Of a stretch of DNA of 64,000 bases, positions 1 through 25,059 are shown one piece after another. How positions within the stretch are numbered: position 1 is the first letter of the stretch; the number at the start of each line of letters is the position of its first letter. Location: the NCBI GenBank assembly GCA_964373055.1, contig CAYJTM010000001.1, forward strand, positions 28,688-92,687, in the 5' to 3' direction. This DNA is from an uncultured Planctomycetia bacterium (lineage in GTDB: Bacteria > Omnitrophota > Gorgyraeia > 1-14-0-20-64-10). The notes below the pieces were generated by a model. It was not told the origin of the DNA. It saw only the letters and a program-made list of their open reading frames with translations, and did not search any database. The translations under genes were made by a program, and so were the position numbers.

Positions 1-1676
1 TGTTCCACCGCCATCGCGGCGGCGATTTCGGTCAACCGGAAGTTGAAGCCGATCAGGTTGGTCAGCGGCTCCGCGCCGGCCTGCTCGGCGACCGCCTCCG
101 CGTGGTTGCGGATCAGGGCCAGCCGGTCCCGCAGCTTCGGATCGCGCGTGACGCAAACCCCTCCTTCCCCGACATGGATCATCTTGTTGACGTTCAGGCT
201 GAAGATGCCGATGTCGCCGAAGGAGCCGACGAACCGCCCGTTGATCTTGGCGCCGTGCGCCTGCGCGCAATCCTCCACCACCTTGAGGCCATGCTTTCGG
301 GCCAGCGCCATCAGCGGCTCCATGTCGGCCGGCAGGCCGAATTGGTGGACCACCACGATCCCGCGCGTCCGCGGAGTGATGCAGCGTTCGATCGAGGCCG
401 GATCCAGGGAACCGGTCTCCAGCTTCACGTCGGCGAAAACCGGGATCGCGCCGTAGACCAGGACGCAGGAGGCCGCCGCCGACATCGTGTAGGGGGAGAC
501 GATCACCTCGTCGCCGTAGCCGAGCCCCAGCGCGCCGATCGCCGCGATGAGCCCCGAGGTGGCGCTGTTTACGCTGACCGCATGGGGGACGTTGTAATAC
601 TCTTCCCAGGCCCGCTCCAACTTTTGGATGGAAGGCCCGCCCCAGAAACTGAAGGGCGGCTCCGGGTTCCAGTTTCCCTCGAAGAGCGAAAGCTGGCCCC
701 TCTGCAGCACCTCCAGCGCGGCTTGTTTCTCCTCTTCGCCGAACGTCTGTTTCTCCGGCGTCGCCATCGCTTGCGCCGCCCAGACCAGCTTCATGGTTTG
801 CGCGGTTTCCTCCAATGGGAAACGCCCTTCCTCCAGCGCCTTGGCCGCCGCTTCGACGGCGCCGGGCATCGATCCCTCCAATCCGCGCCAGGGGGATCCC
901 TCCACGGGCACGAGAACCCGCTCCCCGCGGGGGGTGAGGCGAACCTCCTCCGCCTCGATCCGCTTTCCGAAATCCAGGAAACGGATCCTTCCCTGCTCGA
1001 ATTGGAACTCCCCCTCGAAGAGCAGATAGCCCCGTTCATCCACGGAACGCAGATGGACCGGCGCCTCTCCCACCTGAAGCTCCACGTGGAGGTCGGCGTC
1101 GCTTCCCCGCCCAAACCCGGCCTGCCGGGCGGAAAAGAGCTGGGGTTCCTGCGGGAAGAGCATCCGGAGCAGATCGATCCAGTGGGTGCCGTTGTTGATC
1201 CATCCTCCATAGGTGGTGCAGGACCCTTCCAGCAGCTTTCCGAACCGGTTGGAGCGGGTCCACTCCGCGAGCTTCCGGTGGGGCGGGTCGAACCGCCGCG
1301 TGTGGTTGACTATCACGGTTACGCCGGCCTCCTGGGCCCGCTGCCGGATCTCGGCCAGCTCCTCGGGTTTCAGGCAGATCGGTTTCTCGACGAAGAGCAG
1401 CCGCGGCCGGCGGTCTCCCGCGAAGATCTGCCGGATCTGCGGAAAGTGGAGCTCCGTCGGGCTGCAGAGGGCGATGACATCCGGAGGGCCTCCGGAGAGC
1501 AACTCGTCGAGGTGATGGAAACCCCGCGGGACGCTCCACTCCTTCCGGAAACTCTCCAGCCGGTCCCCCCCCGGATCCACGGCGGCGGTCAAGCGGAAAC
1601 GGGGATGCTGTGAGAAGGCCTTGGCGTGCCGGCGGCCCATCCTTCCGCAGCCAACGATCCCAACGGACCATTTCAT
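1..1676 (-). CDS. Partial (C-terminus beyond window start): fusion protein, N-terminal Gfo/Idh/MocA NAD(P)-oxidoreductase + C-terminal DegT/DnrJ/EryC1 PLP aminotransferase
   Basis: Manual minus-strand translation from ATG at 1676: MKWSVGIVGCGRMGRRHAKAFS... (Rossmann GxGxxG), continuing without stops through ...FGEEEKQAALEVLQRGQLSLFEG...AVSVNSATSGLIAAIGALG...FSLNVNKMIHVGEGG (PLP-lysine motif) to position 1. The C-terminal half is paralogous to the stand-alone DegT at 23764..25059. Not in the ORF track because it runs off the edge. Confidence 0.72.
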   Translation of the reverse strand, partial: MKWSVGIVGCGRMGRRHAKAFSQHPRFRLTAAVDPGGDRLESFRKEWSVPRGFHHLDELLSGGPPDVIALCSPTELHFPQIRQIFAGDRRPRLLFVEKPICLKPEELAEIRQRAQEAGVTVIVNHTRRFDPPHRKLAEWTRSNRFGKLLEGSCTTYGGWINNGTHWIDLLRMLFPQEPQLFSARQAGFGRGSDADLHVELQVGEAPVHLRSVDERGYLLFEGEFQFEQGRIRFLDFGKRIEAEEVRLTPRGERVLVPVEGSPWRGLEGSMPGAVEAAAKALEEGRFPLEETAQTMKLVWAAQAMATPEKQTFGEEEKQAALEVLQRGQLSLFEGNWNPEPPFSFWGGPSIQKLERAWEEYYNVPHAVSVNSATSGLIAAIGALGLGYGDEVIVSPYTMSAAASCVLVYGAIPVFADVKLETGSLDPASIERCITPRTRGIVVVHQFGLPADMEPLMALARKHGLKVVEDCAQAHGAKINGRFVGSFGDIGIFSLNVNKMIHVGEGGVCVTRDPKLRDRLALIRNHAEAVAEQAGAEPLTNLIGFNFRLTEIAAAMAVE

Positions 1677-1705
1677 CGCACCGACTCCTGCCGGTAGGCC
1701 TTCCA
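1673..1705. repeat. 33-bp exact direct repeat copy A (tcatcgcaccgactcctgccggtaggccttcca); contains start codon and SD region of gene 1
   Basis: Identical 33-mer re-read base by base at 1673-1705 and 3447-3479. Confidence 0.85.
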
Positions 1706-2482
1706 TCATTTAACGCACGCCATGATGGACCCCGTTGCAAAGAAATCCAAACCCGGTTTATCTTCGGCCCACGCCGCGATTCTTGAGGTAAACTTTGGCC
1801 ACACCCTGGAGAAAGGATACGGAATGATCAGCTTGTTGTAACTGCACTGAGCCGTCACCCTGCAGCCAGCATCCAGAAGCAGACGCCGGAACTGCCCTTG
1901 GGTGTACGTGTTGCGCCGGATCCCGGCCGGTTTCCGGATGGTGAAGCGAACGAGGGCGCGCAGGGGCCCTGTGGTTCTCACGAGAAGGTCGTCGCAACTG
2001 AATTTTCTCGGTACATTAAATACCAGCCTCGCCCCCGGCCTGGCCACCCGAAGAGCTTCTCGGAGGACCTGTCGCGGATCCTCAAAATACTCCAGCAGCC
2101 CCAACCCGATGACCGCGTCGAACGCCTCATCGGGATACGGCAGCGACTCCGCATCCGCGACTTCAGCCGTAAACCGGGACGTCAGCCCCAAATCGCGAAT
2201 GCACTTCTGAGCATGGCGAATCATTTCGGGAACGCTGTCCGCCCCGTGGTATTCGACCTCTCGCTCCTTGAGCAGCTCGATCAAGGCCCCTGACCCGCAG
2301 CCGGCGTCCAACAAACGCTGCCCCTTGAGATCGCCCAGCAGCTCCACCGCCTTGCGTCGCCTCACCAGAAAACTATAGCTGGCCGGATTCGATGGGTTAT
2401 AGAGCTCGCCCCAGCGATTGCCCATGGCGTAGTCGTCGAAGTGCGCCCGAACCACCCTCCGCTGATTGCTGGGAAGAGTCAC
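1706..2482 (-). CDS. Class I SAM-dependent methyltransferase
   Basis: 258 aa; LLDAGCGSGALIELL motif I, acidic post-I; 4-bp overlap with upstream deacetylase. Confidence 0.85.
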   Translation of the reverse strand: MTLPSNQRRVVRAHFDDYAMGNRWGELYNPSNPASYSFLVRRRKAVELLGDLKGQRLLDAGCGSGALIELLKEREVEYHGADSVPEMIRHAQKCIRDLGLTSRFTAEVADAESLPYPDEAFDAVIGLGLLEYFEDPRQVLREALRVARPGARLVFNVPRKFSCDDLLVRTTGPLRALVRFTIRKPAGIRRNTYTQGQFRRLLLDAGCRVTAQCSYNKLIIPYPFSRVWPKFTSRIAAWAEDKPGLDFFATGSIMACVK

Positions 2483-3450
2483 ACGACACCCATCCGATGA
2501 ATGAGCGGCGTCATCTTCGCCACCAAGATGCTCACTGGAGCGAAGTCATCGATCATGATGCGGGGCAGCCGATAGGGGCCGTCGCCGGATGAGACCATGC
2601 GGAGTTCTGTAGTCCAGGCCGACCGATAGCCGGCCATCCGGATTCCCTGAATCACCCGCTCATCGTAATTTCCGCTGGGAAAAGCAAAGTGGTGAACCGG
2701 CCGGCGGGTCCACTGTTCAAGCAGCTGTTTGGACGTCTGGAGCTCTGCGGCCAACTCCTCATCGCTGAGCTGGGTCAGTTGGGCATGGGTGTGGGAATGG
2801 CTCCCCAGCGTGACCAGATCCCAGTCCAAGCCGCGCAGATGCTCCCGCGATGCGAGCTGGAATCTCTGAAGGCGGGAAGCGGGAGGTTCCCCCAGCTGCT
2901 TTAGAAAGTCCGCCAGGAGCGGCTCTCCCCGCGCTGCATCCGTCTGTTTGAGCATCTTGCTCACCGAGGCGACGACATATCCCCGGTTCCAGGAGCGCAG
3001 GCTCCATCGCTGCCCATCGCAAACCAACTGGGTTTTTGGGCTGTACAGAATGGCCGCGCGCAGACGATCGAACCAGAAAATATCGCTGGAGCCAACGAAC
3101 GCGGTCGGGACAAACCAGGTAGCGGGAAGCCGGTGAGCCTGGAGGGTGGGCAGGATCTCCTGGGCAAACGAAGCGTAGCCATCGTCAAAGGTCAGGGTGA
3201 TCAGCGGTTTCCGGATGTTGGAAGACAGGCTCGCAAGAAATTCTTCGATCCCCACAACATCTGCGTGCTCTTTCAGGAACAGCGCGTGCTTCTTGAAAAC
3301 GCGCGGGTCCACATTATGATAGCTCAAAGCGATCCGACGCTGGCCGGATTCCAAGCGGCCCGCCAAACGCAATAGGCCTGATCCGTGAAGAACCGGGATG
3401 GCCACCCTCTTTAGAACATGCCGGAGTCTGTGATGAGATGGTGGGGTCAT
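2479..3450 (-). CDS. Polysaccharide deacetylase (NodB-like)
   Basis: 323 aa; TFDDGYAS and HSHTH motifs typical of the NodB/CE4 fold. Confidence 0.82.
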   Translation of the reverse strand: MTPPSHHRLRHVLKRVAIPVLHGSGLLRLAGRLESGQRRIALSYHNVDPRVFKKHALFLKEHADVVGIEEFLASLSSNIRKPLITLTFDDGYASFAQEILPTLQAHRLPATWFVPTAFVGSSDIFWFDRLRAAILYSPKTQLVCDGQRWSLRSWNRGYVVASVSKMLKQTDAARGEPLLADFLKQLGEPPASRLQRFQLASREHLRGLDWDLVTLGSHSHTHAQLTQLSDEELAAELQTSKQLLEQWTRRPVHHFAFPSGNYDERVIQGIRMAGYRSAWTTELRMVSSGDGPYRLPRIMIDDFAPVSILVAKMTPLIHRMGVV

Positions 3451-3479
3451 CGCACCGACTCCTGCCGGTAGGCCTTCCA
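3447..3479. repeat. 33-bp exact direct repeat copy B; spans stop of cytidylyltransferase gene / start of deacetylase gene
   Basis: Identical to 1673-1705; here it encodes the C-terminus ...WKAYRQESVR* of the 3447..4211 gene and the ATG of 2479..3450. Confidence 0.85.
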
Positions 3480-4211
3480 GCGCCGCTCCACGCCCCGGTT
3501 TCGATCGGCGAGCTCCGGGTGCTCCTTCATGAATTCAAGGATCTGCGCCAGCCCGAATTCGGGGCCGCGCGGATAGAGATGCTCGTAAACGGCGCTCACC
3601 ACCTCAAAATCCTCGCGCGTATCCACCTCCAGGTAAAGCTCCGGCTGACGGAATCCCGGAGGGGCTTCCAGGTTGCAGATCCGGTACCGCTCCGGCCGGC
3701 CCAGGGTGCCTAAGCTCACATGTTCCCTCTGCTCGGGAGATCGGGCCGTTTGCTCGGCGTCAAACAGGAGGCGGGAGGGATAGACCGTCACCTCCATGCC
3801 GGGCGGATAGGTGGTCTTCAGGGCGCTCGTGACGACGTCGTAGCGGCCCGCGTGCTTGAGGGAGAAACCGATGAACTGGTCGATCAGCAAGGGATCCGGC
3901 AGAGGGCTGTCTCCGAGGAACTCCGCATGAAGATCGCCCGGAAAGGCGCGCAACGCGCCGGCGATACGAGACAGCACATCCTCCTCGCTGCCGCGGAAAA
4001 CCCCTACCCCAAGCCGGCGGGCCAACTCTTCCAGCGGGTCATCCTGCGGGTTGGTGCTGGTGGCCAGGACGATTTGATCAATGAGCCGACTACGGCGCAG
4101 GCGCTCGATCTGCAACTCAATCATCGGTTTGCCCAGGATCGGCAGCAGCACCTTCCCGGGAAGCCGGGAGGAGCCGGTCCGGGCCTGGATCGTCGCCGTG
4201 ACGGTCATCAC
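3447..4211 (-). CDS. Cytidylyltransferase, SpsF/PseF/NeuA-like (CTP:sugar nucleotidyltransferase)
   Basis: 254 aa; IQARTGSSRLPGKVL N-terminal signature of the CMP-sugar synthetase family; paralog of 22393..23157. Confidence 0.82.
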   Translation of the reverse strand: MMTVTATIQARTGSSRLPGKVLLPILGKPMIELQIERLRRSRLIDQIVLATSTNPQDDPLEELARRLGVGVFRGSEEDVLSRIAGALRAFPGDLHAEFLGDSPLPDPLLIDQFIGFSLKHAGRYDVVTSALKTTYPPGMEVTVYPSRLLFDAEQTARSPEQREHVSLGTLGRPERYRICNLEAPPGFRQPELYLEVDTREDFEVVSAVYEHLYPRGPEFGLAQILEFMKEHPELADRNRGVERRWKAYRQESVR

Positions 4212-5332
4212 CCCATCACCTCCGCCCTCAGATCCAAGAGGAGCTCTGCGATCCGGGCCGCCGCGTCGCCTGAGAGCAGCCGGCGCCGGAAGTCGGACTC
4301 CGAAACGGAAACGCCGGCGCCAGAAAAGAGGCCCTCCGACAGGTGGGCCGCGATCCCTTCCGGAGAGCGGGCGGAACGGACCAGGCCTGTCTCGGTCCCG
4401 ATGAAGGGGACGGCGATCCCCTGGGCCGGCTGGTAGCTGACGGCCGGCCGGCCCAGCAGCGCCGCCTCCACCAGGAGCATCGAGGTCATCCCGACCACGC
4501 CATCGGCGGCCAGCAGACAGGCCCAGGGCGGCTCGGCCTGCGCGAGCAGGAACTCCCTGGCGCGCGCCAGCGGGCCGGGCCGAAAGCGATCCCGATCCTC
4601 TTTCGGATGCAGCTTCACCACCCCCTTCAGCCGCCGGCCGTCCCGGCCCTCAACGATCCGGAGCGCCTGCGCCAACCCTTCGAGGGCGTCCGTCTCGGTG
4701 TAGCCCCGGTCATGGGGCGTCCCGCGCCGGAAGTCCTCGGAAAAGAGCTCCGAGGCGAACAGGATCAACGTCGCCGGCTCCTCGCCCATCCAGGCCGCGC
4801 GCAGCTGCCGGGCCTGCTGCAGCAGGCCGGCGTCTCCCGCCATGGCGGCGAGAGACTGCAGATGCGGCTGGCCCGTGATTCTGAGGATCTCCCTGGGAAG
4901 CCCCTCCGCCACTGCCCGCTCCAGAGCGATTTCGTCCATCACGGAGATCTGATTGGGCAGCCTCAGACGGCCGGATCCCGGCTCCACGAACCGCTCCCGG
5001 TAGTTGGACCAATGATCCACCACCGACAACGCGGGAATGCCGTTTTCTTGGCCAAACCGCAGGATCTCTTTTTCGATGCTCCGTCCCCAGGAAGTCCCCA
5101 GCAAAAGGGCCTCAGGCGCAGCGTCGCGCCAGCGCTCGCGCAGGAACCGCTCTCGTTCGCCTCGATCGGCCGGCGCCTCTTCGGCCGCGACCCCTTGCTC
5201 CCGGAAGATCCGCAGCGCCGGTCCCTCAGCGACAACGCGCAGCTGCACTCCAGGGTTGGCCTCCAGCCTTCTTAAGACCGGCAGCAGGATGTTGGCTCCG
5301 CCGGCGTCGCGGGCGGCGACCCAGACTCTCAT
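4208..5332 (-). CDS. GT-B fold protein, PseG/SpsG-like (possible nucleotide-sugar hydrolase or 2-epimerase-like)
   Basis: 374 aa; sits between NeuB-like and cytidylyltransferase genes as in sps/pse loci; C-terminal GVVGMTSMLLVEAALLGRPAV resembles the MurG/PseG C-domain. Family assignment uncertain. Confidence 0.55.
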   Translation of the reverse strand: MRVWVAARDAGGANILLPVLRRLEANPGVQLRVVAEGPALRIFREQGVAAEEAPADRGERERFLRERWRDAAPEALLLGTSWGRSIEKEILRFGQENGIPALSVVDHWSNYRERFVEPGSGRLRLPNQISVMDEIALERAVAEGLPREILRITGQPHLQSLAAMAGDAGLLQQARQLRAAWMGEEPATLILFASELFSEDFRRGTPHDRGYTETDALEGLAQALRIVEGRDGRRLKGVVKLHPKEDRDRFRPGPLARAREFLLAQAEPPWACLLAADGVVGMTSMLLVEAALLGRPAVSYQPAQGIAVPFIGTETGLVRSARSPEGIAAHLSEGLFSGAGVSVSESDFRRRLLSGDAAARIAELLLDLRAEVMG

Positions 5333-6165
5333 GGGGTCTCCCGACCGGCGGCGGTTTTCGGAAACCGGTTTCGGACCCTCTCGCGGATGGCCAGCTCCGC
5401 CTCCACCGGTTTCTTCAGCGCGGTTCCCAGCAGCCGTTCGGCCTGGCGGATCATCCCCACCAGCTCCCGCAGCTCCTCCGGGGTGACCGACAGGACGTGG
5501 TCGGTCCCCGGCAGCGTCTTATCCAGCGTGAAATGCTTCTCGATGACGGTTGCCCCGAGCGCCACCGCGATCACCGGAGCCAGCGCCCCGATCGTGTGGT
5601 CGGAATAGCCGATGGCGTGGTTCGGAAAGGCTTCGCGCAGGGCCTGGATGGCCCGGAGGTTGGCGTCGGAATCCCGGAGCGGATACTGGGTCACGCAGTG
5701 CAGGATAACGACCTGGGGAACCTTCCGGAGGAGGTTCGCCGCCTCCCGGACTTCCCCCAACTCCGCCATTCCGGTGGAAAGATAGACCCTCTGCGCATGG
5801 CCGGCGACGTATTCCAACAGAGGGCGGTTGAGCATCTCCGAGGAGGCGATCTTGATGGAGCGCAGGCCCACCTTCTCGCAGAGGAAGCGGGCCCGCTCCG
5901 GCGTGAAGGGGGCGCTCAAGAACTCCACGCCGTTGTCGCGGGCCAGGGCCGCCAGCTCGAAGTGCATCGCGTCGGGCAGCTCCACCTGATGGAACCATTC
6001 CTTTTCCGGGTCTTGGTCGGAGATGTCCCTGCCCCGGTAGGACTGGAACTTGACGACGTCCGCGCCGGCGCGAGCCGCCTCAATCACCATCTGCCGCGCC
6101 CGGCTCCAGTCCCCGACATGATTCTCGCCGATCTCGGCGATCACCGTCGTGCGTGGGTTCGTCAT
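5329..6165 (-). CDS. NeuB-family nonulosonic acid synthase, TIM-barrel only (no C-terminal SAF domain)
   Basis: 278 aa; IAEIGENHVGD, KFQSY, KIASS, GYSDHTIG, EKHFTLDK motifs of NeuB/PseI/SpsE. Confidence 0.82.
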   Translation of the reverse strand: MTNPRTTVIAEIGENHVGDWSRARQMVIEAARAGADVVKFQSYRGRDISDQDPEKEWFHQVELPDAMHFELAALARDNGVEFLSAPFTPERARFLCEKVGLRSIKIASSEMLNRPLLEYVAGHAQRVYLSTGMAELGEVREAANLLRKVPQVVILHCVTQYPLRDSDANLRAIQALREAFPNHAIGYSDHTIGALAPVIAVALGATVIEKHFTLDKTLPGTDHVLSVTPEELRELVGMIRQAERLLGTALKKPVEAELAIRERVRNRFPKTAAGRETP

Positions 6166-6863
6166 CGAAGGGCTTCCTCCAGCTCAGGGTTGGGCCCGGC
6201 CTCCCGCAGCGCCTGCATGCCCCAGGCCTGCGCGAGCTCGCGCCACCCCTCATGACGCGCCTGGCGCGAGTGAGTCATGCCCGCGGCGTGCCGATGGTAC
6301 GTGTAGAGAGGGGCGGCGACGTGCAGGAACCTTCCCTGAACGCGCAGCCGAAGGTAGAGGTCGTATTCTTCCCAGTAGAAGGGGCGATACCCTCCGATCG
6401 CGCGGAGCAGCTCGGTTCGGAAGAGCGTTCCGCAGGCGATCAGGGAGTACAGGTTGTCAGGGTCCACCCGGACGTGCCGCTTCTCCTCCCCCTCCCATTC
6501 GGTGCGGTCCGGCACGGCGCAGCTGGCCTCGGGGGCCGCCTCCAGCGCGGTTGCCATCCGCTCCAGCCAGTCCGGCGCCGCCCGATCATCCGAGTCGATC
6601 CGGGCAAGGTACTTTCCTTGGGCCAGCCGAAGCCCGGCGTTGCAGCTGGCGGGCAGCCCCTGGTTCGGCTGGCGGATGACGCGGAGCCAGTCCGATTGAT
6701 GCGAGAGGATCTCCTGAGTCTCATCGGTGGAACCGTCGTTGATGACGATCACCTCCCACCGATCAGGAGGAAGAGTCTGCGCGCGGAGACTCCGGAGCGC
6801 TTCGGAAAGCAGGGCGGCCTGGTTGAAGGTCGGCAGGACAGCGCTTACCAGGGGGCGGCTCAT
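6162..6863 (-). CDS. Family 2 glycosyltransferase
   Basis: Start at internal Met (MSRPLVSAVLPTFNQ) gives ATGA overlap with the upstream gene stop; VINDGSTDET, DSDD motifs. The ORF-track N-terminal 93 aa is a read-through extension. Confidence 0.78.
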   Translation of the reverse strand: MSRPLVSAVLPTFNQAALLSEALRSLRAQTLPPDRWEVIVINDGSTDETQEILSHQSDWLRVIRQPNQGLPASCNAGLRLAQGKYLARIDSDDRAAPDWLERMATALEAAPEASCAVPDRTEWEGEEKRHVRVDPDNLYSLIACGTLFRTELLRAIGGYRPFYWEEYDLYLRLRVQGRFLHVAAPLYTYHRHAAGMTHSRQARHEGWRELAQAWGMQALREAGPNPELEEALR

Positions 6864-9151
6864 CGGGGCTTCTCGCAAAGGGCGCCCAGCCCCAACAAAA
6901 GGACGAACGTGATCCCACAGCCGGCCGTAAGCATTTGCAGCGGCACGGCCTCTGCCGCTGTCAAGAGCACAGAGGAACTCTCCGGCGGCACATCGGCTTC
7001 CCACCGAAACCCGGAGAATTGAAGCGCAAGCGGGACGGCGTGGCCACCCCGGTCGACTGCGCTTGCTTTCATTTTCCGGAGATCCACGTGAAGCGACAAC
7101 CGTCCCCCTTTCGGATTTTGGAACCGGACGGCAATTCCCCACGGGATATGTTCCAGCGGCAATGGAACCCCGGGCTCATCAAGAAAGAAGGCAACCGGCT
7201 TGGCGCTTCTGTTTTCGAAGACCGCCGCGTACTCTCCCTGATACACCCGGCTGAACTTCTCTGGGTAAAGGCTTCGCAGGTCGAAATTACTCAGCCAATA
7301 CCGCACCCCATACGCTTCAAAACTCTCCGGCCCGGGGTCGACAATCTCGGCGAGGCGACGATTCAGGAAGGCGCCCTCCGGGCTGTTCGGCCGGTGGAGG
7401 AACGGGTTGCCGTCCGCCCTTAAGTTTCTTTGGACCGGCGTGTAGAAATGCAAGCTGGGGAGCAGGAACGCGAGGCCCTGCCGAAGGGACTTGTCATCCG
7501 CCGAAAGATAGGAAAGGATGACGTTCTCCCGCTGCATGACGGTCGCCCAAAACTTCTTCAAATTCCCTTGGGCAAGGTGGACGTTCGAGGCGAGGATCAA
7601 CCCGACCCGGTATTCGTAGCTCGGGACGCGATCCCGCAGGAACCGGAATTCCGATGGAGGAGACAAGGCCGCATCCAACCCCGGCTGCCGAACGTGCCAT
7701 TCCTGCGAATACCCGACGCTCAACGTGGGCGTCGCGATCGTCAAAAACAACGCGCCAAAGCAAAGAACCGGCCGAGAAGAGGCCCGAAAGGCCCGGGCTC
7801 CGAAATAGCCCGCAAGCCCCAGCGCGACCCCGGCCGCCACGGCGCGTGTGCCGCGCAAAAACTGCGGGATCATGGCCCCGGAACCCAGCATCCCGAAGCG
7901 CGAAGCCCACTCGGTCAACTGCTGGGCGTTCAGCGCGCAGAGAGCAAAAAAGGTCGCGGCTGCGCCGATCAGGAGCGCCTGGTAGAACCGGTGCAAGATC
8001 CGATTCGGCCGGCCAAACTCCTCTCGTCCGACGCCTGCGGCGACCACGAAGCCGCTGAGCAATGGAAAAAGGAAGGTGCGATGGAACCCCAACCCCCTGA
8101 TCAGCGGGGAGGGAATCCGGACCGCCTCCGCCACAGCCAAGGAGCCGATGTACAATCCCATCCCGATGGCCAAGGTTCGCATGCCCCTTTGCCTGGACCA
8201 CCCAAGGGCCAGGAGACTCGGGAGAAAGAGGAACGACCCAAAAAGAAAATTATTGGGAGGTTGTATTTTGCCCAGCCACCCCAGCTTGCTCAGCACGTCT
8301 CCCGCCACGATCGGAGCGGGGAACAGCAGACCCAACAAGCCGGTAAAAACGGAGCCGTCCAAGCCCCAGGCAAGCTCTCTCGGAGTGTATCGGGCGACTA
8401 AACCGGAACCCAACGAGAAGAGGATCGGAGCCAGGATTGGCGTCCAGGCAAGGGCGGTGATCGGCCATACCCACAGGGTCCATGGAACAAGCGTTCGCCT
8501 CCAGCTCCCCTTGCGGTAGACGGCCATCAGAAGAATCGCGGCGAACAGGTAAGCTTGGCTTGCGATCAGGGATGACAGGCCGGCAACGTACGGCTGCAGG
8601 GCGTTGGCAACCGCGCAGGCAAGCAGGTGCCCGCGCCGCCCTGTCTTGAGAAAAAGCCAAAACTCCCCCAAGGAGACCGCCAGCAGAATGGCAGCGGGCA
8701 CCCCGTAGGCCGTGACGACCCATTCCGACCACGAAGGCGAGAAGAACGCCACCACGGCTCCCGTAATCCCGGCGGTTCGAGTAACCCGGAAAACCGTTCG
8801 GCTGTAGCGATACACCACAAAGAAAAGAAGACTGTGCAGGCCCATCAGAAGGATCCCCCAGCCGGCCGCGCTGGCGCCCAGGGCGATGCTGGCCAGGCGA
8901 AGCAGGTGGAATGGATGGAAGACAATGTCCTGGCCCCAAAGCCGGGTATCCGCTGAGAGGTCGAAGTAGTGAAAGAACCGTCCCCCGGGCCGGTTGTCAC
9001 CCAGCAAGGTCAGCATGTGCTCCACGGGATCATCCTCTGAGCTCGTGAGGACGGTCCGCGCGGAAAGCAGCATGGGCCCATAAAAGACAAGCAGGCATAA
9101 AGCCAGCGCAAGGAAAGGAAGGAACCGATCCTTCCCCGGAGAATCGTTCAC
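6860..9151 (-). CDS. YfhO-family polytopic membrane glycosyltransferase (GT-C-like), paralog 1
   Basis: ~764-788 aa, >12 predicted TM helices plus C-terminal extracytoplasmic domain. Shares LALCLLVFYGP, YGVRYWLSNFDL, EGEYAAVFEN blocks with the next gene. Likely GTG start at 9151 overlapping the upstream TGA (GTGA); the ORF track starts at 9226. Confidence 0.75.
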   Translation of the reverse strand: MNDSPGKDRFLPFLALALCLLVFYGPMLLSARTVLTSSEDDPVEHMLTLLGDNRPGGRFFHYFDLSADTRLWGQDIVFHPFHLLRLASIALGASAAGWGILLMGLHSLLFFVVYRYSRTVFRVTRTAGITGAVVAFFSPSWSEWVVTAYGVPAAILLAVSLGEFWLFLKTGRRGHLLACAVANALQPYVAGLSSLIASQAYLFAAILLMAVYRKGSWRRTLVPWTLWVWPITALAWTPILAPILFSLGSGLVARYTPRELAWGLDGSVFTGLLGLLFPAPIVAGDVLSKLGWLGKIQPPNNFLFGSFLFLPSLLALGWSRQRGMRTLAIGMGLYIGSLAVAEAVRIPSPLIRGLGFHRTFLFPLLSGFVVAAGVGREEFGRPNRILHRFYQALLIGAAATFFALCALNAQQLTEWASRFGMLGSGAMIPQFLRGTRAVAAGVALGLAGYFGARAFRASSRPVLCFGALFLTIATPTLSVGYSQEWHVRQPGLDAALSPPSEFRFLRDRVPSYEYRVGLILASNVHLAQGNLKKFWATVMQRENVILSYLSADDKSLRQGLAFLLPSLHFYTPVQRNLRADGNPFLHRPNSPEGAFLNRRLAEIVDPGPESFEAYGVRYWLSNFDLRSLYPEKFSRVYQGEYAAVFENRSAKPVAFFLDEPGVPLPLEHIPWGIAVRFQNPKGGRLSLHVDLRKMKASAVDRGGHAVPLALQFSGFRWEADVPPESSSVLLTAAEAVPLQMLTAGCGITFVLLLGLGALCEKPR

Positions 9152-11481
9152 GGAATCACCCTGAATAAAAGCACAAGGAGTAAGAGAAAGCTGGCAACGG
9201 ACCCGGTCGTCAGCCGCCTGAGCCAAACAGATTCCTTCGCCGTAAAAACAACGGTGGAAGTGCCCGGCGGCAGTTCAACCACCCAGCGCAGGCCGGAGGG
9301 CTGCAGGACAAGTGGAGATGCGTGTCCATTCGCATCCATCGCCCGAGCGTCCATCCTTCTTAAATCCAGGTGGACCGAGAGCTTCCCGCCTTTTTGTCGG
9401 GGGAGTGCGATGGCGACTCCATAGGGTGCGTGTTGGAGCGGCAGCGGCACTTCCGGTTCATCCAGAAAGTGGGCGACCGGTTTGGCGCTCGGATTCTCGA
9501 ACACCGCCCCGTACTCACCCTCTGCCACGCGGACAAACTTCTGGGGGTGGAGCCGCTGCAGATCGAAGTTGCTTAACCAGTACCGGACACCGTAGTCGTC
9601 GAAGCAGCCCGCCTCAGGACGGACAATCACGTCGCGTCGAGTGAGCATCTGCGTTTCTCTGCTGTCCAGGCGTTTCAGGAACGGGTTTCCCTCCCTCCGA
9701 AGCTCACGATGAACGGGCCCATAGAAATGCAAGTACGACAGCACAAAAGCCAGGCCCTGCCGCATCCACGGACCGTTTAGACGGATGGAGTACAAAACCC
9801 GATTCTGATACTCGCTCGACGCAGTCCAGTAGCCCTTCCAATCTCCTTCTGCGAGCAGCATCTCCGAGGCGCAGAGGACCCCTGCCCGGTAGGTGTAGTC
9901 TGGGATGCGCTCTTGGAGGAACCGAATCTCTCGCGGATGGAACAACGTCGCGTCCAATTCCGAATGCCTTGTGTACAATCCCCATCCATACCCGATACCG
10001 AGCGCCGGTGGCACGATCGCCACGAACAAGGCGATGACCCGAGCTCTCCCTTTCGCGTTCTTGGATCGAAAATAGCCCAGAAGCCCCAGCGCAATCCCTG
10101 CGCAGAAGAGGAGGGTGCCTCGGAAAAAACGAGGAATCTCTGTTCCAGACCCCCCTAGCCCAAGTCGGAAGACAACGTCGGTGAGTGCCTGTTCACCTAC
10201 CATCCACAACGCGATCCCTCCAAGGAGTGCCACCCCCAGGATCAGCCCATAGAGACGGTGCAGCGTCCGCAGCCCTCTCGGGTTCACATTCGTCAGGAGT
10301 GCCTCCATCCCCCCCGCGACCACAAAACCGCTCAGCATTGGGAAGGCAAGCGGCAGCCAGAACGAGAGCGGCCGGAACAGGGGTGAAGGAACCAAGACCG
10401 ATTCTACCGCGAGGAAGAAGATGCAGCACAGCGCAACCCCACGGCCAAGGATCCGAAAGGCGCTCCGCCGCGACTGCCAGAGCGCGAGAAAGCAGGGCGC
10501 GAAGAGGAACGATCCAAAAAACCAGGGGGCCGGAGGAGACAGCCTGCTGATTCCAAGTTTTGCCCAGAGGACAAAAGTCACGCTGGGGACTGGGAAGAGA
10601 AGCCCCAAGAGCTGCGTCGAGCGCGAAAGGTCGATCCCCCACCTTAATGGCGCAACTGCCTCCCGAACCGCTAACCCAGAGCCCACGGTGTAGAGGAGCG
10701 GCCCGAGGATCGGCATCCAGCCGAGAAGCGATCGGGGCCAAACGATCAGGAGCAGCGGCAACACGGAGCCCCAAGCATCCCTCTGCGCAGAGGTGCGTGG
10801 CGGCGCATCCTCTAGCGCCGGCCGCCGGCGGAAGAAAGCCATGAGACCCACTGCCCCTAGAAGATAGGCCTGCGAGGGAATGAGGGAGTGCGATTGAGAC
10901 ACGTACGGCTGAAGTACGTTGGCAAGGATGCACAGGATCAGGTGCCGGCGCTGCCTCGTTGTTAGAAAGAGCGCGTATTCACCGACGGACACGACCAGAA
11001 GAAGCAGGGCGGCCGTGGGATGAATCGCCGCTGTCCACATCGGCCAGGATGCCGCGAAGAAGGCTACCGTGGCCCCCGTCAGGGCGGCCGCCGCAGAGGT
11101 TTGCAGCACGCTGCGGCTATACGCGTAGAGGGTCAGGAAGACCAAGCTGTGCACCCCAACAATGAGCGCTCCCCATCCGGTTTGGTTTGAACCCAACACG
11201 ATGCTGATCCATCGGATGAGATGAAGAGGGTTGTAAACCACGTCATCGCACCACAGCCGCGCGTTCACCGAAAGGTCAAAATAATTGAAAAACCGTCCCG
11301 CCGCTTGGTTGTCGCCGAGCAAGGTGAACATGTGGGCCGCCGGATCGAGAGTCGTGCCGGTCAGGACGCTTCCCGAAGAGAGGAGGATGGGCCCATAGAA
11401 CACAAGCAGGCACAGCGCCAGCACGGCGAAAGGCAACACGCGACTTTTCTCGGTACTGGGAGCCAACACGGGGTCAGGCAT
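9148..11481 (-). CDS. YfhO-family polytopic membrane glycosyltransferase (GT-C-like), paralog 2
   Basis: 777 aa; clear protein- and DNA-level homology to 6860..9151 (tandem duplication). Confidence 0.78.
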   Translation of the reverse strand: MPDPVLAPSTEKSRVLPFAVLALCLLVFYGPILLSSGSVLTGTTLDPAAHMFTLLGDNQAAGRFFNYFDLSVNARLWCDDVVYNPLHLIRWISIVLGSNQTGWGALIVGVHSLVFLTLYAYSRSVLQTSAAAALTGATVAFFAASWPMWTAAIHPTAALLLLVVSVGEYALFLTTRQRRHLILCILANVLQPYVSQSHSLIPSQAYLLGAVGLMAFFRRRPALEDAPPRTSAQRDAWGSVLPLLLIVWPRSLLGWMPILGPLLYTVGSGLAVREAVAPLRWGIDLSRSTQLLGLLFPVPSVTFVLWAKLGISRLSPPAPWFFGSFLFAPCFLALWQSRRSAFRILGRGVALCCIFFLAVESVLVPSPLFRPLSFWLPLAFPMLSGFVVAGGMEALLTNVNPRGLRTLHRLYGLILGVALLGGIALWMVGEQALTDVVFRLGLGGSGTEIPRFFRGTLLFCAGIALGLLGYFRSKNAKGRARVIALFVAIVPPALGIGYGWGLYTRHSELDATLFHPREIRFLQERIPDYTYRAGVLCASEMLLAEGDWKGYWTASSEYQNRVLYSIRLNGPWMRQGLAFVLSYLHFYGPVHRELRREGNPFLKRLDSRETQMLTRRDVIVRPEAGCFDDYGVRYWLSNFDLQRLHPQKFVRVAEGEYGAVFENPSAKPVAHFLDEPEVPLPLQHAPYGVAIALPRQKGGKLSVHLDLRRMDARAMDANGHASPLVLQPSGLRWVVELPPGTSTVVFTAKESVWLRRLTTGSVASFLLLLVLLFRVIP

Positions 11482-12478
11482 GGGGACGGTAATAGATCGG
11501 CGCGCACCAGTGATTCTTAGAAACCCAGTCCGTATTCGGGAAGTCCCCTTCCCTCTTGAGGATCCGGTGGCAGGGCTGGTCGTACACCTTTCCGGTGGAG
11601 GGCTCCGCCGGCTCGAAGGTGATGAACTTGTAGTAGCCGGAGGTCATGCCCTCCGGCAGCGTCAGTCGGCGCGGGAACCGGGGATCCAGCACCCGCCGCG
11701 CGTAATCGTTCTTCCAGGCAACAATCTCCGGCAGCCGCTGGGTCTGCACACAGCCGATCGCGGCGGCGAACTCGCTCATTCGGAAGTTCATGCCCTCGAC
11801 GTCGTAGGAGTTTTTGCCGTAGTTGCGGTGCTTCCGGGCGAAGGCCTCCAGCTCCTTATGCCGGGTGACCAGCATCCCCCCTTCCCCGGTGGAGACGGTC
11901 TTGGTGGCGTAGAAGGAATAGATGCCGGCATCGCCCCAGCTGCCCGGTTTCCGGCCGTTCCATTCCGCGCCGTGCGCGTGCGCGCAGTCTTCCAACAGCC
12001 AGATCCCGTTCTTCCGGCAGTAGTCGGCGATCAGTTCCACTTCGAAAGCGATGTGCCCGCCGATGTGAACCAGCCAGGCCGCCTTCGGTTTAAAGCGCTC
12101 CACCTTGCGGATGAAGTCCTCGTAGGAGAGGCAGAGATCGTTTCGGTTGCAGTCCACGAACTCCACCCGTCCGCCCGCCTTCAGGACGGAGAGCGGAGTG
12201 GCCATGAAGGTGTTCGAAGGGCAAAGGACCGTCTCGCCCCGGACGCCGATGAACTCGAGAGCCGCCATTGCCGCCCCCGCCCAGCTGGAAGTGGCCACAG
12301 CCGGCAGGCCGTTCCACCGGGACCAGAGCTGCTCGAACCGCTCGGTGAAGGGTCCTTCGCTCCACCGCTCGGAGGCGACGATCGAATCCCACATCTCGTG
12401 CAGCCGGGGAAGATCCCGCCGGTCGAAACCGATCGAGAAGGCCTGGGACTGAGCCTGATCAGGAACGGAGAGCGGCAT
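11474..12478 (-). CDS. DegT/DnrJ/EryC1/StrS family aminotransferase
   Basis: Start at internal Met MPLSVPDQ (12478); ...SSWAGAAMAALEFIGV..., SFYATKTVSTGEGG (PLP lysine). The 105 aa upstream in the ORF track overlap the epimerase gene and are discarded. Confidence 0.78.
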   Translation of the reverse strand: MPLSVPDQAQSQAFSIGFDRRDLPRLHEMWDSIVASERWSEGPFTERFEQLWSRWNGLPAVATSSWAGAAMAALEFIGVRGETVLCPSNTFMATPLSVLKAGGRVEFVDCNRNDLCLSYEDFIRKVERFKPKAAWLVHIGGHIAFEVELIADYCRKNGIWLLEDCAHAHGAEWNGRKPGSWGDAGIYSFYATKTVSTGEGGMLVTRHKELEAFARKHRNYGKNSYDVEGMNFRMSEFAAAIGCVQTQRLPEIVAWKNDYARRVLDPRFPRRLTLPEGMTSGYYKFITFEPAEPSTGKVYDQPCHRILKREGDFPNTDWVSKNHWCAPIYYRPHA

Positions 12479-13403
12479 CCACCTTGCTCCAGCTCTGCTG
12501 CTGTTGCCGCTGCAGGGCCTGAGTCCAGTCCAGGTAGCGCCGCAGGCCCTCTTCAAAGGGGGTCGAGGCGCGCCAGCCCAGCTCCTGCTGGGCGCGAAGG
12601 GAGCAGGCCACCTTTCCCGAGAAGTCCCCCGGCCGGCCCGGCGTGTGCACGATCTCTCCCCGGCCGACGACCCGCTGGACCGCCTGCGCGATCTGAAGGA
12701 TCGAGACCCGGTCTTGGCCGTCCAGGTTGTAGACCCGGTTGGCGGCCGCGGGCTTAAGGGCCAGCACGATCCCCTCGGCCAGGTCCTCGACATAGATGAA
12801 CTGGCGGAATTGCTGCCCGTCGCCCGCCACGGTGATCGGTTCCCCCTTGAGGGCCTTCGACACGAACAGCGGGACGACGGCGCCGCTGCGGGCCCGGGGC
12901 CCGTAGGGGATCCCGAAGCGGAGGATGGTGTACGGCAGATGGTAGAGAGCCCCGTAGGAACGGCAATAGAACTCCGAAGCGATCTTGGTGGCGGTGTATA
13001 GGTGGGAGGGAGGCGGTATCGGTGTCTCCTCGTCCACCTCCGTTTCCGGGCAATCGCTGTAGACCCAGGTGGTGCTTCCGTAGATCACGCGCGGGGCGGA
13101 GCCGCGGCGGGCCGCCTCCAGGACGCAGATTGTTCCGCGCGTGTTCACCGTCTCGGCATAGGAAGGGTCCTCAAAAACCTCCTTCACGTCGGCGACGGCC
13201 GCCAGGTGGATGACGGCGTGGATCCCCGTCATCGCCAGGCGGAGCGCCTCGATGTCCAGGACCGAACCGATGAAATGCTCCACCCCCGCGTGGTAAGGCG
13301 AGCGCTGCTGGTCGAAGATGCACGGCTCCACGCCGTGCGCGGAAAGACGATCCACCACGTGCGAGCCGATGAATCCCGAACCGCCGGTGACGAGGACTCT
13401 CAT
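12459..13403 (-). CDS. NAD-dependent epimerase/dehydratase (SDR-type nucleotide-sugar enzyme)
   Basis: Start MRVLVTGGSGFIGSHV (13403, ATGA overlap with upstream gene); YxxxK present (YTATKIASE). Confidence 0.85.
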   Translation of the reverse strand: MRVLVTGGSGFIGSHVVDRLSAHGVEPCIFDQQRSPYHAGVEHFIGSVLDIEALRLAMTGIHAVIHLAAVADVKEVFEDPSYAETVNTRGTICVLEAARRGSAPRVIYGSTTWVYSDCPETEVDEETPIPPPSHLYTATKIASEFYCRSYGALYHLPYTILRFGIPYGPRARSGAVVPLFVSKALKGEPITVAGDGQQFRQFIYVEDLAEGIVLALKPAAANRVYNLDGQDRVSILQIAQAVQRVVGRGEIVHTPGRPGDFSGKVACSLRAQQELGWRASTPFEEGLRRYLDWTQALQRQQQQSWSKVDAALRS

Positions 13404-14374: not shown

Positions 14375-15069
14375 CGGACCACCTCCCTGACTCGGTCCGA
14401 AAGCCTCCGGAACTCCTCCGGGGTCGCGCTGAGCGCGTGGTCCCGGATCACGGTCGAGCTCTTGTCCATCGTGAAATGCTTTTCCAGGTAGCGGGCGCCC
14501 CGGTCGATCGCCAGGAAGCAGGCGGAGAGATCGAGGCAGTGGTCGCTGTAGCCGTAGTAGCCCGATTCTTCGAACCGCTCCGGAAACCCCGCAAGGTCCG
14601 ACCCGAAGGCCGGATATTTGGAGCGGCAATAGATGTAGAAAAGGGTTTTTCCGTCCGGCGGCCCGAACGGGAACCGGGGTTCATCCCACATCCCCAGGGA
14701 GACGAAGGTCGGCTTCCCCTCCGCCAGGATCTTGCGGACGAGCTCCGGGCGATCCACCACGGTGCGGGAGGCCACCTTGTAGCGCGGAAGCTCCAATTCC
14801 CGCGCCCACTCCAGCGCCTCCTCCGTGAAGAGTGAGGCCATCAGCTCGATACCGGTTTCCACGCACCAGTCTTTCAGCCGGCGTACCCGCCCGAGGTCCA
14901 TCGCGTTGATCTCCCCCGGCCCGGATCTCCAGCCGAACTGGAACTTGGCGGCGTCCGCCCCGGCGAGCTTCGCCTGGCGGATCATCTCCCGGGCGCGATC
15001 CCAATCTCCGTCGTGGTTCAGCCCGATCTCAGCAACAAGCAGCATGGAGGGGCTCCAGGCATTTTTCAA
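14371..15069 (-). CDS. NeuB-like nonulosonic/ulosonic acid synthase, short form (232 aa, no SAF domain)
   Basis: VAEIGLNHDGD, AKFQ, YKVAS, GYSDHCLD, EKHFTMDK...RDHALSATPEE; second NeuB paralog in window. The start may be the internal Met at 15045. Confidence 0.72.
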   Translation of the reverse strand: MKNAWSPSMLLVAEIGLNHDGDWDRAREMIRQAKLAGADAAKFQFGWRSGPGEINAMDLGRVRRLKDWCVETGIELMASLFTEEALEWARELELPRYKVASRTVVDRPELVRKILAEGKPTFVSLGMWDEPRFPFGPPDGKTLFYIYCRSKYPAFGSDLAGFPERFEESGYYGYSDHCLDLSACFLAIDRGARYLEKHFTMDKSSTVIRDHALSATPEEFRRLSDRVREVVR

Positions 15070-23735: not shown

Positions 23736-23763
23736 GTAACTTGTTATGATAGCACGAATTCTG

Positions 23764-25059
23764 TTACCGGGGAGCGGATTCGAGGAGTGCGGGGGCGTTC
23801 TCGAGGACCTTGTGAAAAGCGGCACTAACCTGGTCCATATGCGTCTGCGTGAGGGGCCAGCGGCAGAACCGCCCGAAGAGGAGCTCCCGCTCAAACAGAG
23901 CTTCCGCGGCGGGACAGAGGCCGCGTGGATAGCGGTAGGGAGCTCCACCCGGCCCGTTCCGGAACGGGAAGCCCTCTTTCCCGATGGCGATCCCCTTCTG
24001 GAAGAGCGGCTCCCAGTAGACGGGTCGGGCGTAGTCGCTCCTCAAGGGGATCCCCTCCGCCTGGACGGCCCGCAGGAACAGCTCACGCGGCAGTCCGCAG
24101 CGCTTCTCGTCGTAGCGCATGGCGTAGAAGTAATAGACGTGCCGGCTGTCCGGGTCGAGCGCCCGCTGAGGCCGCAGGCCGGGCAGCGAGGCCAGCTCTT
24201 TGTCCAGCGAGGCGGCCAGCCGCAGGCGATGCTGCGTCAGCTCTTCCAGCCGGCGCAGTTGCACGGAGGCGATGGCCGCTTCAATTTCGGTCATGCGGGT
24301 GTTTCCGCCGAAGGTGTTCTCCAGGCGCTCCACCCCCAGGGCTTCCACCGCGGTTTCGCCGTGATTCCGGATCAGCCGCAGGCGCAGGGCCAGCTCCTCG
24401 TCCTCCGTCACCATCACCCCGCCCTCCCCGGTCTGGATCGTCTTGTGGACGTTGAGGCTGAACCCCCCGATCCGACCCAGCGTGCCCACCGGCTTGCCCC
24501 GGTACGCCGCCCCCGGGGCCTGCGCGCAGTCCTCGAGGACGGCCAGGCCGTGGCGGCGGGCGACCTCCAGCAGCGGCTCCATCGGGGCGGGATGCCCGAA
24601 CAGGTGGACCACCACCAGGGCCCGTGTCCGCTCGGAGATCCGTTCCTCCACTGAAACGGGGTCGATGCAGAAGGTCTGCGGGTCCACGTCCGCAAAGATC
24701 GGGACCGCCCCGTAGGCCAGCGGGCAGACGGCGGAGGCGGACATGGTCAGCGGCGGGACGATCACTTCATCGCCGGGACCGATTCCCAGCGCTCCGATGG
24801 CGGCGTACAGACCGGAGGTCAGGGAGTTGAAAGCGATCGCGTGGCGCACCCCAAAATGGCCCGCCCACTCCTGTTCCAGCTTGCGCACCCGTGGGCCACC
24901 CAGGAAACCGGGCCCGGGTCCCGCTTGGAATCCGGAGAGGGTCCCCGAATCCAGAACCTCGAGGACGGCCTGCTTCTCCTCCTTCCCGATGGTGGAGGCC
25001 TCGGGCCACCTCTCTCGGCAAACGGGGACGCCTCCCAGGAGGGCTAGCTGTTCAGGCAT
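23764..25059 (-). CDS. DegT/DnrJ/EryC1/StrS family aminotransferase
   Basis: 431 aa; EEKQAVLEVL..., SLNVHKTIQTGEGG PLP-lysine; paralog of the C-terminal half of gene 1. Confidence 0.85.
   Translation of the reverse strand: MPEQLALLGGVPVCRERWPEASTIGKEEKQAVLEVLDSGTLSGFQAGPGPGFLGGPRVRKLEQEWAGHFGVRHAIAFNSLTSGLYAAIGALGIGPGDEVIVPPLTMSASAVCPLAYGAVPIFADVDPQTFCIDPVSVEERISERTRALVVVHLFGHPAPMEPLLEVARRHGLAVLEDCAQAPGAAYRGKPVGTLGRIGGFSLNVHKTIQTGEGGVMVTEDEELALRLRLIRNHGETAVEALGVERLENTFGGNTRMTEIEAAIASVQLRRLEELTQHRLRLAASLDKELASLPGLRPQRALDPDSRHVYYFYAMRYDEKRCGLPRELFLRAVQAEGIPLRSDYARPVYWEPLFQKGIAIGKEGFPFRNGPGGAPYRYPRGLCPAAEALFERELLFGRFCRWPLTQTHMDQVSAAFHKVLENAPALLESAPR

Follow-up and report, generated by a model that had tools for sequence, protein, structure and literature searches.

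A fused Gfo/Idh/MocA dehydrogenase and DegT aminotransferase encoded beside nonulosonic acid genes in an uncultured Planctomycetia bacterium

Pairs of dehydrogenases and aminotransferases are a standard bacterial route to amino sugars, and their chemistry is familiar. KdnB and KdnA convert 3-deoxy-D-manno-octulosonic acid (Kdo) to 8-amino-Kdo (Kdo8N). NtdC/NtdA (kanosamine) and RifL/RifK (3-amino-5-hydroxybenzoic acid, AHBA, pathway) pair Gfo/Idh/MocA 3-dehydrogenases with aminotransferases of the DegT fold. In WbpB/WbpE of Pseudomonas aeruginosa and WlbA/WlbC of Bordetella, as in the protein described here, a Gfo/Idh/MocA dehydrogenase is followed by a DegT enzyme that acts on the resulting keto sugar. 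The WbpB/WbpE-type reactions, those of a 3-dehydrogenase for uridine diphosphate (UDP)-linked N-acetylglucosaminuronic acid (GlcNAcA) and of a 3-aminotransferase, are coupled (PMC10622841). In Acinetobacter baumannii KL49, the cytidine monophosphate (CMP) transferase ElaB is encoded with ElaA, a 323-residue Gfo/Idh/MocA protein with a catalytic Lys/His pair (K91/H181) (PMC13656337). The role proposed for ElaA is to oxidise CMP-linked di-N-acetyllegionaminic acid (CMP-Leg5,7Ac2) at C8, after which the short-chain dehydrogenase/reductase (SDR) ElaC reduces the ketone to give the 8-epimer (PMC13656337). Here we analyse a gene that joins a Gfo/Idh/MocA dehydrogenase and a DegT aminotransferase in one polypeptide. 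It lies at the start of a 64,000-nucleotide stretch, called the window below, of an uncultured Planctomycetia bacterium (contig CAYJTM010000001.1, positions 28,688 to 92,687).

One gene for two enzymes

The fused gene occupies 1..1676 on the minus strand. On re-translation, no stop interrupted the 558 codons between the ATG at 1676 and the window start, in agreement with the continuous frame claimed in a preliminary description of this DNA, and the translation begins MKWSVGIVGCGRMG. The open reading frame (ORF) is truncated at the window edge, the last 158 of its 716 codons lying beyond the window start. A GGAG is found 8-11 nucleotides (nt) upstream of the ATG, which is separated by a 29-nt gap from a methyltransferase gene ending at 1706. 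The full-length protein, P0001 (716 residues), is 100% identical to the window translation over the common part, and a 131-kb contig at NCBI and two read assemblies all encode it identically. Comparison of window positions 1-1702 with the independent read assemblies ERR4904390 and ERR3478686 showed 0 mismatches. The GC content is 64%. Neither a stop codon nor a frameshift, which would have meant two genes, lies between the domains, and the junction is the same in three assemblies. The fusion is a genuine single gene encoding a Gfo/Idh/MocA dehydrogenase and a DegT aminotransferase.

P0001 consists of a Gfo/Idh/MocA half (residues 1-305; 762..1676, minus strand), an 8-residue linker and a DegT/DnrJ/EryC1/StrS aminotransferase half dependent on pyridoxal phosphate (PLP; residues 314-716), of which residues 314-558 lie inside the window (1..737, minus strand) and the remainder outside it. 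Pfam GFO_IDH_MocA (PF01408) matches residues 5-125 (5e-23, 82.4 bits against a cut-off of 24), and DegT_DnrJ_EryC1 (PF01041) matches from residue 347 (1e-69, 235.7 bits against 19.8). An AlphaFold2 model of the full-length fusion, built with an alignment of 88 relatives, has a mean predicted local confidence (pLDDT) of 94.8 and a predicted template-modelling score (pTM) of 0.79. Its Gfo half comprises the Rossmann part, a beta-sheet domain (148-257) and C-terminal helices, all with pLDDT >90; the Pfam model of the Gfo C-terminal domain (PF22725) matches relatives and not P0001. The last Gfo helix spans residues 289-305 and the first DegT helix 314-326, placing the boundary at about 305-313. 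A Rossmann dehydrogenase is therefore present as first described, but the aminotransferase begins earlier than the approximately 330 residues given for the join. Confidence falls only at the junction (residues 306-313, TPEKQTFG; 738..761, minus strand), which forms the lowest block at pLDDT ~75 and was also delimited by comparison with the unfused proteins P0007 and P0008.

The catalytic residues of both families are in place. The Gfo half carries GCGRMG at residues 9-14, EKP at 97-99, NHTRRFD at 124-130 and H165; the EKP motif (E97, K98, P99), NHxRRFD and H165 are invariant across 15 aligned Gfo halves, and K98 (codon 1383..1385, minus strand) is the presumed catalytic lysine. With a GxGxxG motif, the EKP lysine, a downstream histidine and the beta-sheet domain, this half is a member of the Gfo/Idh/MocA family. 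The second Rossmann strand ends with a conserved Asp34, and by the general pattern of Rossmann folds this residue suggests a preference for nicotinamide adenine dinucleotide (NAD) over its phosphate NADP. In the DegT half, SLNVNK is found at residues 493-498, followed by GEGG. K498 (codon 183..185, minus strand) aligns with the PLP-binding lysine of the family, as the preliminary description had proposed, and SLNVNK is kept in the family consensus. Foldseek superimposed this half on solved DegT-type enzymes with TM-scores of 0.79-0.89, normalised by target length. The fold-type I PLP domain and its Schiff-base lysine make it a DegT family member. When the full-length model was searched against the PDB, only the DegT half was matched (at most 430 aligned columns), and the PDB sequence search gave no entry matching both halves, so that no fused enzyme was found among solved structures.

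A two-gene module and its fusions

The nearest relatives of each half are stand-alone proteins. Gfo proteins of 316-318 residues (P0004, P0005, P0007, P0009 and P0011) are 62-77% identical to the Gfo half, and two stand-alone DegT proteins (P0008 and P0010) are 81% identical to the DegT half; typical sizes in the two-gene module are ~317 and ~430 residues. P0007 and P0008 are encoded next to each other on one contig (locus L003), where the two genes share 8 bp (ATGGATAA), from the DegT start to the Gfo stop. The unfused pair also overlaps in L009 and L010 and is separated by 113 nt in L007. Because close relatives encode the two enzymes by adjacent, overlapping genes, the two halves are enzymes of consecutive, functionally linked steps. 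Among the best 120 DegT matches, 21 have a longest contig of the same length as that of a Gfo-subfamily protein. Since the fused proteins themselves are absent from the results of the Gfo profile search, the fused fraction is an estimate.

The same domain fusion was recovered in further proteins (P0002, P0003, P0006 and P0127). Relative to the unfused pair, P0001 has TPEKQ in place of the Gfo stop codon and some 20 N-terminal DegT residues that include an NGGxPVRxxPW segment. P0002, 78% identical, has the same junction with NPEKR instead of TPEKQ. The NGGxPVRxxPW segment is retained in the others, after a linker of ~40 residues in P0003, after ~8 residues in P0006 and after a Pro/Thr-rich linker in P0127, so that four different types of junction occur among the fused proteins. 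In a neighbour-joining tree of 132 Gfo halves, fused forms stand in at least four separate places, each nearest to unfused proteins. These tree positions and the four junction types argue for repeated origin. On these comparisons, the fusion is recent, has arisen repeatedly and is a minority state of the two-gene module. Such recurrence is a classic and strong genomic sign that both enzymes work on a single intermediate of a pathway.

Related arrangements were seen among 1.84 billion cluster representatives. P0207 and P0267 (790-813 residues) are fusions in the reverse order, DegT before Gfo/Idh/MocA, with canonical Gfo C-terminal domains. Tandem DegT-DegT fusions also occur among relatives (P0132, P0151, P0166 and P0175; 777-878 residues). 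No match covering both halves was found in 72,556 plasmids. On a contig of Omnitrophica RIFCSPLOWO2_12_FULL_50_11 (MHFT01000074.1; locus L008, 7986-10346), a continuous Gfo-DegT frame of 786 codons is present, and the deposited protein OGX04592.1 is its 443-residue aminotransferase part only. Gene calls can thus hide such fusions.

Genomic context and the likely substrate

The fusion follows a run of minus-strand genes, from 7142 down to the methyltransferase gene, in which neighbours overlap by 4 nt. The run opens with a family 2 glycosyltransferase (6162..7142; Glycos_transf_2, 1.4e-32) and continues with a NeuB-family nonulosonic acid synthase (5329..6165; Pfam NeuB, 3e-71), which has the barrel only, without a SAF domain, and scores 269 bits with NCBIfam NeuB and 200 bits with PseI, both under the cut-off. 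The next gene (4208..5332) encodes a 374-residue protein with no Pfam or NCBIfam match. Its AlphaFold model (pLDDT 92) resembles UDP-GlcNAc (N-acetylglucosamine) 2-epimerases, which provide all of its best Foldseek matches in the PDB (E ~1e-13), and the matches include the hydrolysing sialic-acid enzyme of Neisseria; we regard it as a candidate NeuC/LegG-like protein. One homologue carries PF02350, and a dozen homologues have a longest contig of the same length as that of a Gfo-subfamily member. From its model, this protein appears to be a divergent, unannotated branch of the UDP-GlcNAc 2-epimerase family that travels with the module. A CTP_transf_3 cytidylyltransferase of the KdsB/NeuA/PseF superfamily follows (3447..4211; Pfam 4.5e-23), with weak NCBIfam matches to KdsB and PseF. 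Members of this superfamily make CMP-Kdo, CMP-N-acetylneuraminic acid (CMP-Neu5Ac) and CMP-pseudaminic acid (CMP-Pse). Two genes, for a polysaccharide deacetylase family protein (2479..3450; Polysacc_deac_1, 1.5e-24) and an S-adenosylmethionine (SAM)-dependent methyltransferase (1706..2482; Methyltransf_11, 4e-22), are inserted in this lineage between the cytidylyltransferase and the fusion.

We compared the window and L001 with the P0002 contig and loci L003-L010, which come from Planctomycetia, Thermodesulfobacteriota, Omnitrophica, Vicinamibacterales and Campylobacterota. CTP_transf_3 lies directly upstream of the Gfo gene in seven of them (L003, L004/L008, L006, L007, L009 and L010), often with a 4-nt overlap; the window differs by its two inserted genes. 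Upstream of the cytidylyltransferase is a protein of ~375-390 residues that matches no Pfam family, with a NeuB-family synthase nearby. The order 2-epimerase fold, CTP_transf_3, Gfo and DegT, with NeuB nearby, is seen in the window, on the P0002 contig and in L003 and L009, and in L004/L008 the same series is interrupted by a radical-SAM gene. L006 has the series but lacks DegT, the epimerase-like match of L007 is weak, and in L005 and L010 only the cytidylyltransferase adjoins the Gfo/DegT pair. SAM methyltransferases and a radical-SAM/SPASM protein are frequent in these loci. In L006 (8001-12487; Planctomycetia metagenome-assembled genome (MAG) CAYJQV010000006.1), the Gfo gene is followed by a GNAT gene (8960-9532) and, two genes on, by a class I/II HisC-like aminotransferase (11399-12487). 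This looks like a non-orthologous replacement of the aminotransferase partner, in which the logic of oxidation followed by amination survives. L007 (276-3229; Thermodesulfobacteriota MAG JBMORG010000010.1) has, in addition to its Gfo/DegT pair, an iron alcohol dehydrogenase beside a second DegT near NeuB, an arrangement like KdnB/KdnA. Both natural variants lend support to the logic of oxidation followed by amination.

Since the module adjoins a cytidylyltransferase, a 2-epimerase-fold protein and NeuB, a nonulosonic acid is its most likely substrate. With moderate confidence, we read the fusion as a bifunctional enzyme that oxidises and then transaminates a nonulosonic acid, probably in CMP-linked form. 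The NAD-dependent Gfo/Idh/MocA half would oxidise a sugar hydroxyl to a ketone or aldehyde, and the covalently attached DegT half would convert this carbonyl to an amine, giving a nonulosonic acid whose amino group is additional or introduced late. Fusion may hold a labile keto intermediate close to the enzyme acting on it next and help to drive an unfavourable oxidation. The gene order would then mirror a pathway of NeuC/NeuB/NeuA type with two extra steps attached to its last enzyme. ElaB/ElaA are a direct precedent. An oxidation of ElaA type, with the reductase exchanged for an aminotransferase, would yield an amino sugar rather than an epimer. Amino sugars of this kind do occur in nature, an 8-amino nonulosonic acid being known from Flexibacter maritimus (PMC3210612). 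The sequences themselves establish the two domains, the conserved catalytic residues, the recurring gene neighbourhood and the repeated independent fusion, whereas the assignments of substrate, oxidised carbon, amino donor and any recycling of NADH (reduced NAD) are inferences.

The preliminary description had likened the protein to a WbpB-WbpE pair acting on UDP-GlcNAc or UDP-GlcNAcA. Such an enzyme, of WbpB/WbpE or GnnA/GnnB type, would oxidise and transaminate C3 of either sugar nucleotide, and the released 2-oxoglutarate would re-oxidise NADH, a coupling fixed by the fusion. We consider this unlikely, although the two enzyme families and the chemical order are the same, and the fused dehydrogenase and DegT enzyme with their redox-then-transamination logic bear out the general likeness. 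The cassette contains a 2-epimerase-fold protein whose structural matches include WbpI-type 2-epimerases (8sxw, 8syd). A WbuX-family amidotransferase (TIGR03573, 5e-104) lies directly downstream of the fusion, and the Wbp O-antigen cluster also has an amidotransferase. P. aeruginosa WbpB oxidises NADH with alpha-ketoglutarate (PMC10622841); by analogy, the fusion might hard-wire such recycling.

A specific WbpB/WbpE identity, in contrast, did not hold up. The DegT half is about equally far from BtrR and RbmB (2-deoxy-scyllo-inosose), Fic25, perosamine synthase, ArnB and KdnA (1e-50 to 1e-44 in the PDB sequence search). Its best match reached 2.5e-50, compared with 2e-45 for KdnA, 6e-35 for PseC and 4.4e-27 for WbpE (3nu7), which came ~39th in the match list. 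Matches of the Gfo half to solved structures are confined to the Rossmann part (best 3.6e-14); WbpB (3o9z, 1.9e-6) and WlbA (3q2k, 9e-10) are no nearer to this half than inositol dehydrogenases, YjhC or TM_0414 (3EZY), and in a search with a profile of 15 Gfo sequences WlbA ranked 15th and WbpB fell outside the top 60. No curated NCBIfam cut-off was reached: the scores were 210.8 bits against 423.5 for PseC (TIGR03588), 177 against 631 for ArnB, 167.8 against 420 for the LegC family (TIGR04181), 85 against 355 for IolG (inositol 2-dehydrogenase), the best such match of the Gfo half, and 60.2 against 450 for UDP-GlcNAc 3-dehydrogenase (NF040723). Both halves thus belong to unnamed subfamilies. 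The last score, together with a context of cytidylyltransferase, 2-epimerase fold and NeuB, speaks against the UDP-GlcNAc(A) substrate first proposed.

Gene content points the same way. Among ~45 larger minus-strand ORFs scanned in the window, we found no WbpA-type UDP-sugar 6-dehydrogenase and no WbpD-type (hexapeptide) acetyltransferase, and neither a UDP-sugar 6-dehydrogenase nor a hexapeptide acetyltransferase was found in the related cassettes; of the enzymes that accompany WbpB, the 2-epimerase alone has a counterpart, the 2-epimerase-fold protein. The ever-adjacent CMP-type cytidylyltransferase and the nearby NeuB have no role in the Wbp pathway. Nor can a 3-amino hexosamine pass through NeuB to a normal pyranose nonulosonic acid, since, by chemical reasoning, the hexose O3 becomes the ring oxygen; we rejected a 3-amino hexosamine feeding NeuB on this ground.

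Still less probable is an early amination, in which C4 of nucleotide-linked GlcNAc is aminated without 6-deoxygenation and 2-epimerisation/hydrolysis and NeuB then give a 5,7-diamino nonulosonic acid with a 9-hydroxyl. No 4,6-dehydratase accompanies the 2-epimerase-fold protein, NeuB and the cytidylyltransferase in the core cassettes of three loci (L003, L006 and the P0002 contig), so that the second amino group could be introduced in another way. However, no N-acetyltransferase is conserved between the aminotransferase and the epimerase/NeuB steps, and many loci, including the window (11474-13673), already have an SDR dehydratase with a PseC/LegC-like DegT. Moreover, translational coupling ties the Gfo gene to the cytidylyltransferase, whose step completes nonulosonic acid synthesis. 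Nor is any Gfo/Idh/MocA enzyme known to oxidise a nucleotide hexosamine at C4, so that early amination also lacks a precedent.

An inositol dehydrogenase joined to an inosose aminotransferase, making an inosamine that decorates a glycan, is very improbable. Inositol 2-dehydrogenase is the best NCBIfam match of the Gfo half, and glutamine:2-deoxy-scyllo-inosose aminotransferases are the best solved-structure sequence matches of the DegT half; yet these scores are barely above those of other subfamilies, the inositol 2-dehydrogenase score lying far below its cut-off, and the cassette holds no inositol-phosphate synthase or phosphatase, its partners being NeuB, the cytidylyltransferase and the 2-epimerase-fold protein. 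Least credible of all is a sequencing or assembly frameshift joining two genes, which we rejected: the closest relatives are unfused and one deposited annotation of a fused ORF gives the aminotransferase part only, but three independent assemblies share the junction, P0002 keeps it at 78% identity, the net deletion cleanly removes the stop and ~20 codons, and the model is confident through the junction.

Several points weigh against amination of a nonulosonic acid as the function. The substrate is assigned by inference from gene context. The DegT half is equidistant from nucleotide-sugar enzymes (perosamine synthase, ArnB) and non-nucleotide enzymes (BtrR, KdnA, Fic25), so that homology does not fix the substrate class. 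The link to ElaA is that 3EZY is among the nearest solved relatives of both, and the two proteins are compared by description, not by sequence. Both the 2-epimerase fold and the WbuX-family amidotransferase downstream would fit a Wbp-like pathway of nucleotide hexosamines as well. Finally, two cytidylyltransferase paralogues occur in several loci, either of which could activate the nonulosonic acid.

If amination of a nonulosonic acid is nevertheless the function, the loci may, as a tentative extension, represent a widespread undescribed pathway, in which a finished, CMP-activated nonulosonic acid is aminated late, yielding a new class of sugars that resemble sialic acid, such as 5,7,8-triamino sugars or 7-amino sugars with a 9-hydroxyl. 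Repeated fusion would then reflect channelling of an unstable keto-CMP-sugar. The O-polysaccharide of Flexibacter (Tenacibaculum) maritimus contains an 8-amino-3,5,7,8,9-pentadeoxy-nonulosonic acid (PMC3210612), and late amination, if it occurs, could explain the origin of this 8-amino sugar.

Other genes of the region and comparison with known systems

Downstream of the fusion in the same organism, the WbuX/PseA-family N-acetyl sugar amidotransferase is followed by two large proteins, one of them weakly related to TIGR04326 surface-carbohydrate proteins. The window also contains a stand-alone DegT gene with no adjoining Gfo gene (23764..25059, minus strand; Pfam), followed by a GNAT gene (23154-23948, minus strand) and a second cytidylyltransferase (22393-23256, minus strand), the last two assigned by Pfam and local phmmer. 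The DegT protein is indeed a paralogue of the fusion's DegT half, but "close", as it was first called, overstates the relation: identity is 57% over 250 residues, compared with 70-81% for unfused orthologues elsewhere. These genes belong to a second partial gene set on the minus strand, made up of a short NeuB-like protein (14371-15069), a WbuX-type amidotransferase (18098-19192), the cytidylyltransferase (22393-23256), and GNAT with the DegT paralogue (23154-25059). No second Gfo gene was found in the window, and no canonical Epimerase_2 among the window ORFs scanned. A separate SDR dehydratase and its PseC/LegC-like partner, the third DegT of the window, lie at 11474-13673.

Further unusual domain combinations were noted. 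At 16650-18350 (minus strand), a family 2 glycosyltransferase (residues 91-251) is fused to a CTP_transf_3 segment (residues 324-405). A similar protein is encoded at 11382-12782 of L020, a related locus in a cultured bacterium, on plasmid p6 of Azospirillum argentinense MTCC4035 (NZ_CP032327.1, 135746-154915). L020 also encodes AsnB, a short NeuB-family protein, a methyltransferase, GNAT and a 780-residue DegT-methyltransferase fusion that is closest to the window's DegT paralogue; the opposite strand encodes a Gfo/Idh/MocA enzyme together with proteins resembling a cytidylyltransferase and a 2-epimerase. The locus tags of its DegT and Gfo/Idh/MocA genes are D3093_RS34905 and D3093_RS34875. 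In L008 (14890-16963), an ORF of ~690 residues that runs off the end of the locus may be a NeuB-cytidylyltransferase fusion, with NeuB N-terminal as labelled by local phmmer. At 36666-38423 of the window (minus strand), a phosphoenolpyruvate (PEP) phosphomutase and a MobA-like nucleotidyltransferase domain form one protein, an indication that the glycan is decorated with phosphonate. Its minus-strand cluster includes an asparagine synthase (31109-33001), a protein consisting of the pyruvate-kinase barrel only (30062-31096), a sulfotransferase-like protein, an ABC exporter, an amidase and a B12-radical-SAM protein.

The fusion represents a rare state of a gene pair that is widespread and uncharacterised. 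What is new is a subfamily of both enzymes outside every curated family definition, in a module linked in many phyla to genes that make nonulosonic acids and activate them with CMP, not to nucleotide-hexose genes. We found no paper on the Gfo/DegT module or on its fusion, and no description of the biosynthesis of extra-aminated sialic-acid-like sugars in the literature searched. If the substrate is a (CMP-)nonulosonic acid, the module offers a testable route to such sugars and a single-polypeptide catalyst for it.

Among the described systems, NtdC/NtdA and RifL/RifK share the enzyme families, and NtdA and AHBA synthase are among the PDB matches of the DegT half. These pairs differ from the fusion in that they act on glucose-6-phosphate or UDP-glucose, are unfused and have no nonulosonic acid context. 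WbpB/WbpE and WlbA/WlbC share the order of reactions, but they are separate proteins with a UDP-uronic acid as substrate and WbpA, WbpD and WbpI as partner enzymes, whereas the fusion lies with NeuB and a CMP transferase, and neither half of the fusion is specifically related to them. KdnB/KdnA of Shewanella resemble the proposed activity in that oxidation and a DegT-type transamination take place on an ulosonic acid rather than on a nucleotide hexose, and KdnA superimposes on the DegT half with a TM-score of 0.84 by target length (sequence match 2e-45). KdnB, however, is an iron alcohol dehydrogenase and not a Gfo/Idh/MocA protein, and the pathway has an eight-carbon substrate and separate genes. 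ElaB/ElaA are alike in context, a cytidylyltransferase adjoining a Gfo gene in a NeuB locus, as in the seven loci described above. The partners differ: ElaC is an SDR reductase that gives an epimer, whereas the partner in the module is an aminotransferase, which in this lineage has become part of the same polypeptide.

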